A stretch of 64,000 bases of DNA from Escherichia phage 1-6bf (OR983334.1); one strand, 5' to 3'; positions 2,942 through 27,220 are shown, counted from the first letter of the stretch. Notes: generated from the sequence alone by a model not told the origin. A program made the numbers and translations.

Positions 2942-3746
2942 GCTCCCTGAAGTTGCTATAGTGGATGCTGACGTTCTTCGATATGAAGTGGGTGCTCTTA
3001 CTCAGGAGCATCCCTTTCTTGACACAGGACGTGTTCCAGTTGATTACAATTTCATGATTGAACGACTTCAGTACAAGATAGATACAATCATTGCTCGCTC
3101 AGGTTGCAGTAAGGTTGTGTTCTACTTCAGCGAAGGTGGTAACTTCCGTTTTGATGTTGCTAAGCAGCAAGACTACAAGGCAAACAGACCTCCCGGAGAA
3201 AGACCTTTTCACTGGCAAAACGTTGGTGATTACATTAAAGCCAAGTACGAATACATTGAGGTCTTTGGGAGAGAAGCTGATGATGCACTAGCTGAAAGAC
3301 AACGTAGGGATAAGAATACTATCATCTGTACTAGAGACAAGGATTTGTTGATAACTCCCGGATGGCATTATCGCTGGGCTTGTGGAGAAAGACAGAAAGA
3401 AGTTCCTCCTCACTATGTATCCGATTTAGTCTCATGGCAAAACTTCTTCTATCAAATGTTGATTGGAGATGGTACGGATAATATCCCCGGATGTGGGGAA
3501 CGTAAAGAAGTTATGTGGGGCGGTAAGCTTCAGCTTCGACGTCAAGGAATAGGGAAGAAGGCAGCAGCTAAATTGTTGGCTGGTGTTACAGATAAGTGGA
3601 CCATGTATCATATAGTACGAATGGAATACTATAAGAAGTTCGATACTGAAGATGAAGAGAAGATGCTTGAGAATGCTCGGCTGCTCTTTGTTGGTCAGGC
3701 TCCGGAAGACCTGTTCGACTGGACATGGTTAGATAAATCTTGGTAA
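2928..3746 (+). CDS. 5'-3' exonuclease / flap endonuclease (FEN, RNase H-like)
   Basis: motifs IVDADVLRYE, EADDALA, TRDKDLL, IGDGTDNIPGCG, GIGKKAAAKLL match the FEN/T5 D15/T7 gp6 family. Confidence 0.8.
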   Translation: MEEVKLPEVAIVDADVLRYEVGALTQEHPFLDTGRVPVDYNFMIERLQYKIDTIIARSGCSKVVFYFSEGGNFRFDVAKQQDYKANRPPGERPFHWQNVGDYIKAKYEYIEVFGREADDALAERQRRDKNTIICTRDKDLLITPGWHYRWACGERQKEVPPHYVSDLVSWQNFFYQMLIGDGTDNIPGCGERKEVMWGGKLQLRRQGIGKKAAAKLLAGVTDKWTMYHIVRMEYYKKFDTEDEEKMLENARLLFVGQAPEDLFDWTWLDKSW

Positions 3747-3759
3747 TAAGGATATTATA

Positions 3760-3939
3760 ATGGGTAAATTTGATTATCGTTCATATGATGAAAACTCATC
3801 CAATCGTGAATCTCGTAAAGATCAAAAGATTAAACATCAACTGTTTGATCAGCGAACTGGTCGTATTCCTCGTGAGGGAAAAGTGAGTCATCGTGTAAAC
3901 AAACGAGTTTGGGAAGAAGCTGATTATGGCGAAGTCTGA
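3760..3939 (+). CDS. hypothetical small protein
   Basis: 59-codon ORF with AAGGA RBS; overlaps start of downstream HNH gene. Confidence 0.3.
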   Translation: MGKFDYRSYDENSSNRESRKDQKIKHQLFDQRTGRIPREGKVSHRVNKRVWEEADYGEV

Positions 3940-4327
3940 GAAGACTCGCTGTAGTGGAATGTGGACTGAAGCTCGTTACAACTCTTTCATCAAGTCAGGG
4001 ATTCGTTCTCTGACTAGAAAGTGGAAGCCCATGTTCGATGCACTAGCAGACGCCAAGACAGAGCAGAAGATTAATCCGAAGACAGGAAGACTGGCAATGC
4101 ACTTTAAATGTGCCATGTGTGGTTCTGACCACCCTGTAAAGGATATGGCTATTGACCACATAGAGCCTATAGTTCCCTTAGATCATGAAGCAACTTGGGA
4201 TGAAATCATCTCTCGTGCTCTGTGTGAGAAAGAAGGTTTTCAGGTTCTATGTAAAGACCCTTGTCATAAGATTAAAACAAAAGAAGAGAATGATGCAAGA
4301 AAACAATTCAAAAAAGGAAATGAGTGA
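3926..4327 (+). CDS. HNH endonuclease
   Basis: CAMCGS ... DHIEPI ... CKDPCHKIK zinc-binding HNH motif. Confidence 0.6.
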   Translation: MAKSEKTRCSGMWTEARYNSFIKSGIRSLTRKWKPMFDALADAKTEQKINPKTGRLAMHFKCAMCGSDHPVKDMAIDHIEPIVPLDHEATWDEIISRALCEKEGFQVLCKDPCHKIKTKEENDARKQFKKGNE

Positions 4328-4547
4328 TGATCAAAAATCTACGCAACAAGTGCTTCGCTTTCGCTATCGCAATTGGAGAGGCGAGGTTGCTGACCGGTCC
4401 GTTATTCCACTCCGAACCTCCGTTGCTAGCTCCCGTTTTCATAACGGTGGCAAACCTTGTTGGATTATGACAGCGATAGATGTAGAGAAAGATGAGATTC
4501 GAGAGTTCAAACTCTCTGACATTATTCAGTATTACGATTTAATCTAG
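4320..4547 (+). CDS. hypothetical protein
   Basis: ORF with AAAGGAAA RBS; no recognisable motif. Confidence 0.35.
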   Translation: MSDDQKSTQQVLRFRYRNWRGEVADRSVIPLRTSVASSRFHNGGKPCWIMTAIDVEKDEIREFKLSDIIQYYDLI

Positions 4548-4555
4548 GAACTGAC

Positions 4556-4720
4556 ATGATCACACAAGCAGATAAAAATAAACTCTTCGACTTAATCCAC
4601 GACCTATTAGAAGCTCAGAGTTTTATCAACAACGCCGACACTTGGGAGATGGAAGCAGCTGGAAAAGCTTTTGATGAAAGTGAAGAGAAGCTTATTAATT
4701 TTATAAACACAATCTAGGGG
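4556..4720 (+). CDS. hypothetical small protein
   Basis: 54-codon ORF at end of + strand cluster. Confidence 0.3.
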
Positions 4721-4872
4721 GTTATATGAATGAAGAAGTTGTTATTCTTGGTAGTAAATCAGATTGGTTCTACGGAGGCATCTCAGGATGCTTTGAAGAT
4801 GAACATCCAGACTTCTGAAGAGAATTGGGATGTATGACGAATTTGATGGTTTTTAAAACTTAGAAACAAATA

Positions 4873-4906
4873 AAGCCCTCTTGGATTTCTCCTTGAGGGC
4901 TTTTCT
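4873..4906. terminator. bidirectional terminator between convergent gene blocks
   Basis: AAGCCCTC-loop-GAGGGCTT hairpin flanked by T/A runs, placed exactly where + and - strand clusters converge. Confidence 0.5.
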
Positions 4907-4910
4907 TTTA

Positions 4911-7900
4911 TCACTCCTTAGGTCGAACTCTTACACGGAGTCTCGATTGACGCTTACTGCGTTCAAGCTTCTCTGACAATGAGCCACGTTTAATCTTCGG
5001 CTTCCCTTCGTCATTAAACTTCTCCAAGAACTTCAAGTACTCAGTACGGTTCGTTGTCTTGTAAGAAGGAATCTTAATATCAGGGTTCTCTTCAATTACA
5101 CGTCTCATCTTCGCTACATCATCCCTACCAAGCAACTTACTCTTAGCCTGTTCAGCTGTAGAACCAAAGATCTTCTCCAGTGCTCTGGATTTGTTACCAC
5201 CTGCGGAAGAAGCACCAAGTTTAGCAATAGCAGAATAATCATCAGCACTAAACCAAGCTACTGGATTATCACCATACTTCTTCTTGTTTTCAGCAGCAGT
5301 CTGCAATGCACGTACAAAGCGACGGTTGTTACCAGCCTTATCTGCACCATGAACCCTGTCTAAAACTTCAGCCACACTAGCCAACTCATCCAAGCTTTTA
5401 CCACTCAAGAAAGCTTTCTCTACTTTATCAGCAAAGACCTCTTCCTGTTGTTTAATGCTTTCCAAGATATCAGAATTTGCTTGAGATCTTTCATCGTCAG
5501 GCAGAGCAGAACGAATCTTCTCCATCTCCAACTCTTCCTCTTGCAGTTTCTTAATATCAGAGTCAACCTTCTGAGCCTCCTCAATAGCCTTCCTAGTATC
5601 AGCATCCAAGTTATCAAGCTTACCTTCAGTATCTCCAGTAACCTTAACAATCTCTTTCTCGATAGGAGTCATTGATTCGTACTTCTTAGCGAACTTCTCA
5701 ACATCAGCCTCAATACGAGAGCGAGCATTCTGATGTTCAGTTGGAGTCATAGGCTTCTCGAGAAGTGCATAACGGTTATCCATGTAGGAACCAGCAAACG
5801 CTTCAGCATCCTCTCTAGATATGCCCTTATCTTCCATAGTACGCATCAGACGGCGATGAATGTCATCACGTTGACGTTGTACTGCCATAAGGTCATTCTC
5901 TCGCTCTTGGGCCGCTTTAAGCTCTTCACTGCGCTTAACTCTCTTGTCCACATCAAACTTACGGTTCATCTCTTCCGCTTGCTCATACATCTTATTCCAC
6001 TTAGCCTGACGAGCATCTTCCTCTGCATCAGTTAAACGACGCTGACGATCAAGGTAATCTGACTCGGCGTTGTGAATACGTTCAATATAACTACGGAACT
6101 TCTCTGGAGGAACCGGAGAGTTCTTATCGTGGTGAGCAGCCAACTGTTTCAATGTACGAGATTCCTGAGCCTCACGAACAGGTTTAGGTAAACCTTCCAT
6201 CATCTTCTCAATCTCACTCTTCTGAGCTGCAATAGCCTCTAGGGTTTTACGTTCATTCTCAACAGCAGCTTTAGCATCCGAACGAGCCTGAGCCTTTTTC
6301 CTGAGGGTAGCAAGACGTTCTTCACGAGCCTGTAAATGCTTAGCAGCAGCTTCGTATTGAGAGTTCTTGTTGGCTTTGTTGAAGGCATTCACTTCTCTGT
6401 TATAGGTGTTAATAAACCCATCCCAAATATCCTTCATCTGACCAACTTCCAAAGCCTCTTCCCTACCAGCCTTCTCTGAAGATTTAAACTTCCCATCTAC
6501 AAAGTCATTCATCAGCTTACGCATAGCATCTTTCTGAGCAGGACGTAAAGGTTCTGAATCAATCAAAGCATCAATCTCAGACTGAAGCTCTTTCTTCTGG
6601 TCAACCAGTTTAGGAGCATCTTTCTTATCGAAAGCTTTGTTCTCTTCTAGAGCTTGTTGATACAATCTATCAAACTCATCTTCACGCTGCTTCTGATACA
6701 ACCTTTCAGCACGACGTTTCAGACTATCCAAGTTAGTAACGTTCCCACCTAAACCTTTCTCTTCAGCACGTAATGCCTTAGTAGCAATGTCTTCTGGCAG
6801 ACCACGTTCCTTAACCCATTCAGCAAAATTAGTTCGTACAGTGTTGTTCTTAGCAGTAGCAATACCTTGCTGTGAAGCCAGCTGGTTACGAGCCATTTCT
6901 TCATGACGTTCAGTGTTGATAGCATTGTCTTCCTGACGAATACGACGCATCAATTCCTTAGGATCACCTTTATAAGCCAAGAAGTTTTCAGCAGTAGCTT
7001 TAGCCTTAGCAGCCTTGGAGTACAGAGAACGAGCAAAACGTTCTGCACGATCTTTGGTAGCCTGACGAGCAGCACTAGACATAGCAGCTAGACGTTCTAC
7101 ACCACTTGCCGGTTTAACGTCCTGTACAGCTTCCTTAGGAGCTTTAGGAGCACGAGCAGGTAATGGCTCAGCTTTGACTGTTGGTTCCTCTACGGCTGGT
7201 TCTGGAGCCTGTGCGGCCTCTTCTTGAGCACGTTGCTGTTCCATTGCGCGACGCTCCTCTAAAGGGTTACGAGCAGGGAGAGGTTCAGCCTGTGGAGCTT
7301 GTTCGACCGGAGCTTCTTGAGCAGCCAATGCCTCTTCTTCAGCGCGACGCTGTTCAGCCTGACGGATAGCACGTCTTTGCGCAACTAAATCACGAGCTGT
7401 AAGAGGAGTTTCTTGAGGAGCAGAAGAAGGAAGATTTTCTTCCGTCACAGTACTAGAAGAAGGCTCCCGAACCGGTTCGGTTTCTACGTCATTTTGCGTC
7501 TTAAATTTAATGTCATCAACAACTGGTTCTTCTTCCATCTTAGCACGAGCTTCCTCGGCAGTAGATTTAGCACGAGCAACTTCCAAATCACCACGAGCAA
7601 GAGAGCGGATAGCTTCACTGTTAGACTCTTGTTGCTTAACACGTTGAGAGCGAGCACGCTGAGAAGAGAAGCGATTCAGAGCATACTTAGCAGCACCAAG
7701 AGTATTCATTACCAGACTAGGTGAAGAAGCCTCACGGAATCCATCATCAGTCAGGGAAGTCCAACCACGATCTTGGTTGCTCATGAACTTAGCTGTATTG
7801 TTCAGAGTGTAAGCATCTTGGATAGGATTAAAACCTTCAGGCATACCTTTCAGTTTCTTCAACCCACCAATAGCTTTCTTCATCTCTGGAGAAACATTAT

Positions 7901-24284: not shown

Positions 24285-25034
24285 TTATACTCTAGAGGTA
24301 CGTATTCCATAAATATCTGGCAGGCTACTCTGAAGTCTGGTCATGTTGTTGGGTATCGCAATAGGAGAACCTGAGTACTCCTGTTTCTTATCTTGCTCAA
24401 CCATCTCATCAAGAATAGCCTTACCTAACGCAGACCATTTTTGAACACCGTTATCATCCTGAACAAAAAGACATGCATGCCTAAGGGTAAAGTATAGAAG
24501 AAGTTCTGGAGCAATCGTAAGTATTGCACTAGTATCTTCGTCTGCGTGAAACTCCGGAGGATCTGCATAATAGCTTAGAATTACAGAGTTCTCTGCTGGA
24601 ATAGCAGGACTTCCATCTTCAGGGTAAACAGGGGTATCAGCATCAATCAGTGGATAGAACAAGAAACGACTTCCGAAACGAGCAAAATTAACAGGTTGAT
24701 TATTCCAGTGAGAGGGGTTAATTGTGCCATGCTGTTTACGATAGCTTATCTCTTCTGGGGAAGTTACTTGGAATATTGCTCCATCTTTAGCTCTCATTAT
24801 CCATTGAGCTTGCAAGTAGTCCGGTGGGATGAATGCTATACCATTCTTGATACTCAGATACACTTCCTTTTCCAGAGGAGGGATACGTAAGTTGCGATAA
24901 ATCTCTTTCTCTGCAAAATTAATAAAGTTTGGAATTTGATTAACAAATTCGTCATCGTCCCTATCTGCCCAGAGGGCCACGGCTTTCTTTAGCCACCCAT
25001 AGGTATTGATGGGATATTGGACGTCAGGCATCAT
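24285..25034 (-). CDS. virion protein (head-tail adaptor candidate)
   Basis: 249-aa ORF, GGAGG RBS, between capsid and fibre genes. Confidence 0.4.
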   Translation of the reverse strand: MMPDVQYPINTYGWLKKAVALWADRDDDEFVNQIPNFINFAEKEIYRNLRIPPLEKEVYLSIKNGIAFIPPDYLQAQWIMRAKDGAIFQVTSPEEISYRKQHGTINPSHWNNQPVNFARFGSRFLFYPLIDADTPVYPEDGSPAIPAENSVILSYYADPPEFHADEDTSAILTIAPELLLYFTLRHACLFVQDDNGVQKWSALGKAILDEMVEQDKKQEYSGSPIAIPNNMTRLQSSLPDIYGIRTSRV

Positions 25035-25536
25035 AATAAACCTCCTTCCAGTTTACGCCTTTAGTAATGAGAGATATTGTGCTTTTAGAGACCCCAAACT
25101 TTCTAGCTAAGGCTCTAGCTCCAAACTCTCTATCTCTCGGTTTGTAGTTCTCCAAACAAAAGAGAACTTGCTCTTTAGTGAGTTTGGAATTAGGGTTATC
25201 CTCAAGACTCCTAGGTGTTGAGAGGCCTGTTTCAAAAGCATGTGTACAATTTTCTTGTTGAGTACACCACTCTAGATTCTCAATCCTGTTATCGTCTTTT
25301 ATTCCATTCTTATGGTTGACACAGTCCTTCCCTTCTACCTTAGGAAGAAAGAGTTCAGCTATGACCCTATGCTCTAAATATGATTTCTTTTTAAAAGTCA
25401 CTTTACGATAACCTCTGTCGCCAATACACCCGGCACGTTGTCCTTTCTGCTTATTAAAGATGTTACTCATAGACCAGAAAAGATGCCCTGTATTTGGATC
25501 ATAGGTAAAAGCTTCTCTGAAATCTGGCATTGCCAT
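25024..25536 (-). CDS. HNH homing endonuclease with C-terminal HTH
   Basis: YLEHRVIAELF ... VNHKNGIKDDNRIENLEW ... QQEN (HNH_3-like) plus LARKFGVSKSTISLI HTH; sits between capsid and tail genes and overlaps next gene by 11 nt. Confidence 0.8.
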   Translation of the reverse strand: MAMPDFREAFTYDPNTGHLFWSMSNIFNKQKGQRAGCIGDRGYRKVTFKKKSYLEHRVIAELFLPKVEGKDCVNHKNGIKDDNRIENLEWCTQQENCTHAFETGLSTPRSLEDNPNSKLTKEQVLFCLENYKPRDREFGARALARKFGVSKSTISLITKGVNWKEVYYDA

Positions 25537-25578: not shown

Positions 25579-25600
25579 CACACTAGCTTGTATAGGTCTT

Positions 25601-25630
25601 AAAACGAAAAAACCCCGCCCGAAGGCAGGG
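25601..25630 (-). terminator. rho-independent terminator after capsid gene
   Basis: CCCTGCC-TTCG-GGCGGGG hairpin followed by TTTTTTCGTTTT on - strand. Confidence 0.55.
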
Positions 25631-25637
25631 TCTAGTT

Positions 25638-26161
25638 TTAAGCAGGTGTTACACCAGTAAAAGTGCATGTTGCATTGATGGACGGGTCAGCTGTCAAACT
25701 TGCTTGAACAGTAACTTCGCCACTTGCAGCAGCATCTAAGGTTAACGCACCAGCGGCGCTTACTGTACCAGCTTCTATAGGAGTTACAACAAACGTGTAA
25801 TCCGCAGCAGCAGAATTAGTTACAGTAAACATGGTAGTGAAATTAGTGGAGGAACCACCAGTTTTACCCGTAATTGGACCCTTAGCTACAATAGTAGGAG
25901 CAGGAGCAACAATTTCAGAAATGGTTGCTGTACCAGAAACACCTTCTAAAGTTGCAGTAATGGATACATCAGTGGATTGAGACGCACTCGGAGCAGTATA
26001 CAAACCCGACTGAGTGATAGAACCACCGCCTGTCACTGACCAAGTAAAGCCAGTTGTTTCGGTAGAACCATCACTTTTCTCCGCGCTTGCAGTGAACTGC
26101 CGAGTAGCCCCTGTCTCTAGACTTGATAAAGACGCAGGGCTAACAGTCACACTGTCTACTG
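25638..26161 (-). CDS. Ig-like (Big_2-type) capsid decoration domain, expressed as -1 frameshift extension of the major capsid protein
   Basis: Ig-like Thr/Ser-rich ORF is open in the -1 frame across the capsid stop; slippery heptamer G_GGA_AAG lies 4 codons before the capsid stop. Confidence 0.55.
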
Positions 26162-27220
26162 TTACGCCGCCACCTTTCCCGCAGCAGTGAACAGAACGCC
26201 GGAAGCATACGGGTTGCGGTGACGCAGACCAACTTCCATTTCAATCATCCACTTCTCGTAAGAACCGTCTTTAGCCAGTTCAGTACGTTTCGGAGCACGC
26301 AGAACCATCTGAGTCCAGTCAGCGCTACGGAAGAAGTAAACTGCATCGGTAGGCATCCAACGGTTAACGATGATTTTGTAGCTCTGGCCCAGCGGGTCAG
26401 TGATGCTGTTAACTTCGTAGATGAACTGCTTGGTGTTCTCAAAGATACGCTTACGTGAACCCTGAGTATTTTCTTGCAGACCAGCGAAGATCTTAGCATG
26501 AGCTGGGTTAATCATGATGATATCTGCTTCAGAACCAGCGGTATACAGTTGCAGAGTCATATCAAAGATATCAGCTTCGTCAAAACCAATGTTAGTGGTC
26601 GGGTTAGAAGCATTCTGTGCAACTTTAACAGTTACTGCACCAGTATCTGGGTCAGCAGGACCATTCTTGGTCTTGTCAACAACACCACCAGCCAGACCGC
26701 CGTGAGCACACAGGAACTGGAATGCACCAGTCTTACGAGCTGCATGAGTGTCGTTCAGACCAACAGTTGCAGGATCAGTTGCAGAGTTAGTCAGGTACTG
26801 GTCAGCCAGAACGTCGGTACGAGCCTGACCGGATAGAAGGATTTTCTCGAGGTCACGCTTGATCTCTTTACCTTTCTTCTCCAGCTGATACATCAGTTCA
26901 CGACCACGACCGTAGTTAGCGGTGGTGTTAGCAGTATCAGAAACGCGAACAACCTTACGCAGAATCTGAGTAACGTTAGATTTGATAACAGTCGGTTTCA
27001 TTTCGCCGTCTTCAGCACGAGAGCCTTCGACGTGTGCGTTATTACCGTCAACGCTTGCCAGTGCATCGGTCTGCCAGCTAAAGATAGTCTGGTTAATAGA
27101 CTCTTTACCGGTCATGGATACGAACGGGGTATCCTGAGGGGACAGAACAGAAATCCAGTTAGCAAAAGAAAGTTTTTTACCATTCTGGTCATACGATACA
27201 AATAAAGTTGGATTAGCCAT
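26162..27220 (-). CDS. major capsid protein
   Basis: 352 aa, between scaffold-like and decoration genes, strong terminator downstream, GGAG RBS. Confidence 0.7.
   Translation of the reverse strand: MANPTLFVSYDQNGKKLSFANWISVLSPQDTPFVSMTGKESINQTIFSWQTDALASVDGNNAHVEGSRAEDGEMKPTVIKSNVTQILRKVVRVSDTANTTANYGRGRELMYQLEKKGKEIKRDLEKILLSGQARTDVLADQYLTNSATDPATVGLNDTHAARKTGAFQFLCAHGGLAGGVVDKTKNGPADPDTGAVTVKVAQNASNPTTNIGFDEADIFDMTLQLYTAGSEADIIMINPAHAKIFAGLQENTQGSRKRIFENTKQFIYEVNSITDPLGQSYKIIVNRWMPTDAVYFFRSADWTQMVLRAPKRTELAKDGSYEKWMIEMEVGLRHRNPYASGVLFTAAGKVAA

Follow-up and report, generated by a model that had tools for sequence, protein, structure and literature searches.

A predicted programmed -1 ribosomal frameshift linking the major capsid protein of Escherichia phage 1-6bf to a two-module Ig-like extension

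The major capsid protein gene of Escherichia phage 1-6bf is followed, in the -1 frame, by an open reading frame for an Ig-like protein, which raises the question whether the latter is a gene of its own or is translated as an extension of the capsid protein. A sequence-only reading of this DNA had proposed a fusion of the two by a programmed -1 ribosomal frameshift at the heptamer GGGAAAG, and this proposal was followed up here on a window of 64,000 nucleotides (OR983334.1), the whole stretch of DNA that was analysed. The analysis makes it very probable that frameshifting at GGGAAAG yields the predicted capsid-Ig fusion. A capsid-Ig frameshift has already been described for phiEco32-like phages and is not new. 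The features that define the locus in the window are the following.

26162..27220, minus strand: major capsid protein gene (0 frame, from the ORF list), 352 aa, 38.66 kDa, predicted HK97 fold, TAA stop at 26162-26164
26174..26180, minus strand: slippery heptamer G_GGA_AAG in the X_XXY_YYZ register, located in the sequence 9 nt 5' of the 0-frame stop
25638..26174, minus strand: predicted -1 frame extension, from translation, 178 codons followed by TAA (25638-25640)
25600..25633, minus strand: intrinsic terminator, 5 nt 3' of the extension stop, with a 10-bp stem (6 G-C pairs), a TTCG loop and a T-run

The capsid ORF ends on the minus strand with ...TTC ACT GCT GCG GGA AAG GTG GCG GCG TAA, leaving three sense codons between the heptamer and the stop. 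The -1 frame is already open 22 codons 5' of the heptamer. It reads G-K-GGGVTVDSVTVSPASL..., the part GGGVTVDSVTVSPASL... starting at the last G of the heptamer, and continues for 178 codons, free of stops, into the Ig-like ORF that ends at 25638. The predicted fusion consists of capsid residues 1-349 and the 178 residues of the extension (349 + 178 = 527 aa), with the predicted junction ...FTAAGK-GGGVTVDSVTVSPASLSSLETGATR and the Lys at the join. The end of the capsid ORF, the position and register of the heptamer, the open -1 frame, a fusion of roughly 527 aa and a strong terminator immediately behind it had all been called correctly from the sequence. The mass had been overestimated, since the fusion was expected to be about 19 kDa larger than the capsid protein and the computed masses of 55.65 and 38.66 kDa differ by 17.0 kDa. 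The ORFs of at least 150 aa in the window contain 33 in-frame X_XXY_YYZ heptamers; GGGAAAG occurs among them only once, at the capsid site, and this is also the only one of the 33 where the -1 frame stays open for more than 30 codons. Because the heptamer and the long open -1 frame are each unique in this set, the arrangement in the capsid gene is more than a coincidence.

The 352-aa protein matches the Pfam family SU10_MCP (PF17236) with 259.4 bits at a cut-off of 24.1, aligns over residues 1-352 with the major head protein of phage SU10 (PDB ID: 7z45, E 3.5e-235) and was assigned to PHROG 1328. These matches identify it as the major capsid protein, with the HK97 fold, of the phiEco32-like phages. 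The capsid-Ig region is 99.0% identical to that of IMEP8, 97.8% to that of phiEco32 and 97.6% to that of SU10, and because of this near identity the window is assigned to the genus Kuravirus (Gordonclarkvirinae), i.e. to a phiEco32-like podophage.

The extension falls into PHROG 13745, "Ig domain containing protein" (E 3e-80). An AlphaFold2 single-sequence model of it reached a pLDDT of 49.7, which is too poor for a fold search, and a profile search against PDB sequences was used in place of a structure-based one. The extension was found to comprise two Ig-like modules.

25926..26159, minus strand: Ig-like module 1 (Big_2-like), extension residues 6-83, a Pfam match that starts 5' of the annotated GTG at 26150
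25653..25898, minus strand: Ig-like module 2, extension residues 93-174, from the orthologue profile against PDB sequences

Module 1 scores 22.1 bits (E 1.4e-4) against Big_2 (PF02368), just below the gathering threshold of 22.8, and the orthologous extension of phage NJ01 passes that threshold with 28.3 bits. Among PDB sequences, a profile built from eight orthologues matches Ig domains in the solved structure of a teneurin-like protein (E 2.5e-8). Module 2 matches residues 378-459 of the T5 tail tube protein pb6 (E 0.0027), the C-terminal part of that protein, which we take to be an Ig-like domain. The extension had been read as a single domain of the Big_2 type; its Ig-like nature is borne out by the profile match, the Big_2 assignment stays slightly below threshold for this sequence, and the number of modules is two instead of one. 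Judged by eye, module 2 is present as a single copy here and in phiEco32, NJ01 and ECBP2. TH42, EK010, SGF2, EP335 and YF01 carry it repeatedly, with up to four repeats in the last three, and sometimes have an extra C-terminal domain as well. Extension lengths within the genus range from 178 to 543 aa, with 271 aa in TH42, 351 in SGF2, 370-372 in EK010 and EP335 and 543 in YF01.

Of 17 Kuravirus-like sequences examined, every one carries the heptamer GGGAAAG unchanged, at a distance of 9 or 12 nt from the capsid stop, and 16 have an intact -1 extension. The sole exception is SU10, whose -1 frame ends after 11 codons owing to a 1-nt insertion, accompanied by substitutions, in the loop of a hairpin just downstream of the heptamer. 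More distant relatives differ in how the Ig-like part is attached.

Uncultivated IMG/VR phages (L009-L012): capsid identity 57-66%; site CUG AAG GUA AAG, without a canonical heptamer; -1 Ig ORFs of 89-170 aa
Proteus phage Privateer (L015) and Cronobacter phage vB_CsaP_009 (L016): capsid identity 57%; GGGAAAG directly followed by TAA; -1 frame of 169 aa with I-set and Big_2
Salmonella phage 7-11 (L022) and a close relative (L018): capsid identity 56%; no slip site; single ORF of 585 aa with the capsid core running in frame into Big_2
Three further relatives (L013, L019, L020): capsid identity 53-56%; no site and no extension

The four uncultivated phages differ in their Ig ORFs, which hold either a pair of Big_2 domains (E 8e-35) or one of the I-set type. 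As judged from these sequences, a C-terminal Ig appendage on capsid proteins of the SU10_MCP type is an old and recurrent feature, acquired through a -1 shift or in frame. The same pattern, recoded or in frame, was described by Atkins et al. for phage Ig-like domains in general (PMC5009743).

Frameshifting at this heptamer has been on record for some time. Slippage at GGGAAAG in SU10 was noted "as in phage phiEco32" by Mirzaei 2014 (PMC4281155), and the YF01 paper of 2023 described two capsid isoforms across the Kuravirus-like group, with a premature -1 stop in SU10 alone (PMC9965538), a stop that was reproduced by the sequence comparison made here. A passage on Privateer in Corban et al. 2021 gives the same heptamer and mentions that capsid and frameshifted product were observed in phiEco32 (PMC7881722). 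The GenBank records of YF01 and Paul carry a joined capsid CDS, and the note in the Paul record (MN045231) reads "Frameshift at GGGAAAG" and adds that this also occurs in the PhiEco32 major capsid protein product (PMID: 18294652). According to the statements in PMC7881722 and PMC4281155 and the note in MN045231, the fusion product was detected in phiEco32 virions. Between the window and phiEco32 there is no difference from position -30 to +51 around the slip site, and because the junction sequence is identical the published phiEco32 result would transfer to the present phage.

Most records nevertheless present the Ig-like ORF as a separate CDS, and the corresponding explanation is a gene of its own starting at GTG 26150, translated for instance by termination-reinitiation into a free 170-aa decoration protein that, like Hoc or pb10, would attach to the capsid non-covalently. 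The location of this GTG, 11 nt past the capsid stop, speaks for such a start, but no Shine-Dalgarno sequence accompanies it: over the 18 nt before it, anti-SD pairing reaches at best -1.7 kcal/mol, with a mean of -1.9 at random positions, whereas seven neighbouring genes show -6.1 to -12.4 kcal/mol. Six relatives (NJ01, ECBP2, KBNP1711, EP335, SGF2 and SDYTW1) have ATA or GTA instead of this codon, and in their -1 ORF a start at ATG, GTG or TTG becomes possible only after 33-46 codons, at a point deep in the Ig domain. The SU10 cryo-EM paper considered gp10 a possible separate minor capsid protein; in the present phage, however, the Big_2 match starts three residues 5' of the GTG, and the stretch between heptamer and GTG, a G-rich linker followed by VTVD, is conserved at the protein level. 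Pfam and the profile search detected no separate capsid-binding domain in the Ig ORF, only the two Ig-like modules, and in phage 7-11 the equivalent extension is fused to the capsid protein in a single frame. A separate gene is accordingly considered improbable.

SU10 also gives rise to the idea that the heptamer is present only by accident and that the Ig ORF is a remnant in decay, without expression at a useful level. SU10 is fully viable despite the indel by which its -1 frame is cut short after 11 codons, and its structure showed no extended capsid protein. Yet SU10 is the only one of the 17 Kuravirus-like sequences with a broken frame; elsewhere the extension is intact and has even grown to 351-543 aa by module duplication, the heptamer is invariant, the arrangement recurs in distant clades, and sources citing the phiEco32 work report a 56-kDa-type fusion in its virions. 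The lack of extra (Ig) density on the capsid in the SU10 cryo-EM is not evidence against an extension in phages where it is intact, since the frame is broken in SU10. Decay is therefore even less probable than a separate gene. The same fusion protein could, finally, arise by transcriptional slippage of the RNA polymerase, which would leave the product identical and which no sequence feature specifically favours. The homopolymer runs at the site do not exceed G3 and A3, whereas the cases of transcriptional slippage known from bacteria depend on longer ones (reviewed in PMC5009743), and the heptamer stands in the exact X_XXY_YYZ register expected of tandem tRNA slippage, so that this route is given next to no weight. 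The ribosomal frameshift put forward by the sequence-only reading is upheld by the missing Shine-Dalgarno sequence, the unconserved GTG, the domain start 5' of it and the genus-wide heptamer.

By ribosomal frameshifting, expression of the locus would proceed as follows. The capsid gene and the Ig-like ORF would be carried on one late mRNA that ends at the terminator, and most ribosomes would stop at the capsid TAA and release the 352-aa HK97-fold protein. A minority would slip back by one base with tRNA-Gly and tRNA-Lys positioned on GGA and AAG, re-pair on GGG and AAA, and translate 178 further codons in the -1 frame to give the 527-aa minor capsid protein. Because its 349 N-terminal residues are those of the capsid protein, the fusion is expected to co-assemble into the shell, with the two tandem Ig-like modules presumably exposed on the outside of the prolate head. 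In E. coli, G_GGA_AAG counts as a heptamer at which ribosomes shift very readily (PMC5009743). Since the lambda G/GT site has the same heptamer and shifts at about 4%, the efficiency here is likely to be a few percent. The SU10 head contains 715 capsid subunits, and if the head of the present phage has a similar number, tens of extended subunits per head may be expected.

Folding of the RNA downstream of the heptamer had been suggested as a check for a stimulatory stem-loop or pseudoknot. An element of this kind about 5-9 nt downstream, or an SD-like sequence upstream, often accompanies bacterial heptamer sites without being required. Folding and comparison with shuffled sequences did not reveal a convincing classic stimulator at 5-9 nt downstream, and the fold of the 94 nt 3' of the heptamer did not differ significantly from shuffles (z = -1.53). 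An SD-like motif 5' of the heptamer was not visible by eye, and an Rfam scan returned no matching family. Two hairpins were considered further.

26141..26164, minus strand: proximal hairpin (HP1), UAACAGU-N10-ACUGUUA, a candidate weak stimulator that starts 9 nt past the heptamer and contains the 0-frame UAA
26107..26140, minus strand: distal hairpin (HP2), stable and covarying, starting 33 nt past the heptamer

All seven pairs of the proximal hairpin are invariant in 11 sequences while the loop varies, and the spacer to the heptamer is 9 or 12 nt in the relatives. With -5.3 kcal/mol and z = +0.76 this hairpin is weak and thermodynamically unremarkable. The distal hairpin has an energy of -15.6 kcal/mol and z = -3.4, with none of 200 shuffles as stable, and two of its pairs show compensatory changes (UA/GC/AU and GC/UG). 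In one pair the synonymous third position of a Ser codon covaries with the second base of the codon five further on; six extra Kuravirus sequences yielded no new pair types for this hairpin. At 33 nt it is too distant for a conventional stimulator, and it would be traversed solely by ribosomes that have already shifted. The covariation of the distal hairpin is an observation that is possibly new.

A stem-loop that encloses the heptamer was proposed by Mirzaei et al. (PMC4281155). Its energy is -11.4 kcal/mol (z = -1.3), and it was rejected as a stimulator because the ribosome must presumably have melted a stem enclosing the slip site by the time it slips. The uncultivated relatives of the L009 type share a similar two-hairpin layout, with G_GUA_AAG as the heptamer. 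Their combination of this non-canonical heptamer with a G-C-rich proximal hairpin 6 nt downstream may be new.

It is conceivable, if rather unlikely, that the two hairpins form a downstream element that serves the slip site, composed of a weak, invariant proximal hairpin with the 0-frame stop and a stable, covarying distal one. If so, this capsid family would constitute a natural series in which the quality of the slip site is traded against the strength of the stimulator, and the distal hairpin would represent a novel type of modulator, acting either on frameshift efficiency or on translation of the extension. In our reading, the heptamer alone would account for a low-percentage shift, as it does in lambda, with the hairpins as unproven modulators.

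For annotation, this calls for a single joined CDS with ribosomal slippage in place of two entries, one for the capsid gene and one for the "Ig domain containing protein"; most GenBank/RefSeq records of Kuravirus wrongly split this CDS. As to function, the Ig modules may provide weak adhesion to carbohydrates or surfaces, since this role has been proposed for other phage Ig-like domains. Binding of mucin and heparan sulfate by the Kuravirus ES17 was also considered as a function of the Ig extension and was discarded, since this binding is assigned to the tail fibre and not to the Ig domain. The extension is dispensable in laboratory culture, because SU10 has lost it. The extended isoform would place Ig-like modules on the head of phages that are under development for E. 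coli therapy, and domains of this kind might serve in attachment to mucus or to the surface of cells; no new principle emerges from the case.

The closest known system is gp11/gp12 of phiEco32, which has the same gene, heptamer, -1 Ig-like extension and terminator and is not materially different; a terminator is also annotated at the corresponding place in the SU10 record. The extended capsid isoform of SU10, Paul, YF01 and Privateer likewise combines GGGAAAG, the capsid gene and a -1 Ig-like extension. Within this set, YF01 and Paul have an extension of 543 aa and 1-6bf the short two-module form of 178 aa, the -1 frame is broken in SU10 and intact in 1-6bf, and the stop directly abuts the heptamer in Privateer, whereas in 1-6bf it follows after 9 nt.

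The lambda G/GT frameshift resembles the present one in the identical G_GGA_AAG heptamer, as had been pointed out from the sequence, in its use of the E. coli translation machinery and in a stop shortly after the site. Its products, in contrast, are tail assembly chaperones and not part of the virion capsid, and the T extension is not Ig-like. The T7 capsid frameshift uses a different slip site. The 10A/10B proteins of T3 and T7 also result from a -1 shift near the end of the capsid gene and include a longer minor species that co-assembles (PMC5009743), in phages that belong to another podophage family and another capsid sequence family than 1-6bf. The parallel to T7 drawn in the sequence-only reading therefore holds for the capsid frameshift but not for the nature of the extension, which is Ig-like in T3 and not in T7 10B (PMC5009743).

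The present case belongs to the general class of phage structural proteins whose C-terminus receives an Ig-like domain by frameshifting (Fraser et al. 2006), a class that includes Lactobacillus phage A2 and the Listeria phages A118, A500 and PSA. Recoding at the 3' gene end here equips a fraction of the subunits, of the major coat or of the tail, with the domain. These phages differ from 1-6bf in host, slip site and direction (+1 in PSA), and 1-6bf is distinguished from them by two or more tandem Ig-like modules and by a prolate podophage head. Some relatives of phages with frameshifted Ig domains carry the domain in frame (PMC5009743), a pattern that is matched here by Salmonella phage 7-11. 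Its 585-aa major head protein consists of a homologous SU10_MCP core followed by Big_2-type Ig domains, with the extension in frame and no frameshift, and is presumably extended on every subunit instead of a minority.

Within the Ig-like coding region of the phage 1-6bf window, a second, distal hairpin (HP2) was located, starting 33 nt 3' of the slip site:

26107-26140, minus strand: HP2, a stable hairpin (-15.6 kcal/mol, z = -3.4) within the Ig-coding sequence

Two of its base pairs covary across approximately five Kuravirus haplotypes, and no description of HP2 was found in the literature covered on these phages.

The uncultivated IMG/VR contigs L009-L012 encode capsid proteins 57-66% identical to that of the window. 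In the GenBank phage collection, no isolate matches the larger part of this stretch of the contigs. They lack a canonical heptamer and carry a different site:

Locus position ~4412-4418, IMG/VR contigs L009-L012: candidate non-canonical slip site CUG AAG GUA AAG (G_GUA_AAG)

Despite the non-canonical site, the -1 frame leads directly into Ig ORFs of 89-170 aa. In L009-L011 the G-C hairpin GCGCCC-CUAC-GGGCGU begins exactly 6 nt 3' of the site and is itself followed by a second, longer hairpin. Judged from these sequences, the site may represent an A_AAG-type slip that depends on a strong stimulator.

In phage SU10 (L002, locus position 2628-2665), the weak proximal hairpin has become a perfect 11-bp stem (-19.5 kcal/mol, z = -4.7) through a 1-nt insertion and substitutions, which also bring the -1 frame to a stop after 11 codons. 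The mass spectrometry offered in 2014 as support for a 9+10 fusion in SU10 assigned 22 peptides with 50.29% coverage to the fusion and 23 peptides with 78.1% coverage to gp9 alone (PMC4281155, Table 2). Expressed in residues, these coverages correspond to ~265 aa of the fusion and ~275 aa of gp9. The figures for the fusion could be explained by peptides from the capsid part alone, and the 2014 data therefore do not demonstrate the fusion.

In most Kuravirus records, RefSeq included, the Ig region is given a CDS of its own (relatives' loci L001-L003, L025-L028, and L032-L035), with annotated starts that differ between records and are often internal. The start of SU10_010 is placed 127 nt past the capsid stop, those of 172-1 ORF29 and FS2B lie deep within the Ig domain, and the SDYTW1 record leaves the region without annotation. 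Among the records examined, a frameshifted product is annotated only in Paul, YF01, and Privateer. A 24,953-bp GenBank entry labelled "Mycolicibacterium phage J1" (MZ417522.1) is ~90% identical to the Kuravirus capsid/Ig/adaptor region, probably as a result of mislabelling or contamination.

The window contains a further gene, located after the capsid/Ig terminator and before the adaptor gene:

25024-25536, minus strand: free-standing HNH_3 homing-endonuclease gene (Pfam E 6e-13)

At 25024-25034 the end of this gene and the start of the adaptor gene overlap. The gene occupies this spot in only ~10 of 85 Kuravirus records, with matches at 99.6% in 1-6af and FH3 and at ~88% in TH38, XT18, XT32, TH06, MLP3, IME267, and PAS59. 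Because neither phiEco32 nor SU10 has it, it looks like a mobile insertion.

The extension itself varies between Kuravirus species. Inspection by eye (L024-L029) found 1 to 4 tandem copies of the second Ig-like module (GPITGK...TGVTP, ~85 aa), and the extensions of YF01, EP335, and EK010 bear an additional, unrelated C-terminal domain. Such variation suggests that the appendage evolves rapidly in a modular fashion. In Salmonella phage 7-11, and likewise in a closely related phage, the capsid and Big_2-type domains are encoded in one frame:

Locus position 3501-5255, Salmonella phage 7-11 (L022) and its relative (L018): single in-frame 585-aa protein, capsid core plus ~260 aa of Big_2-type domains

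Going by this gene arrangement, every capsid subunit in the 7-11 lineage presumably carries the appendage.
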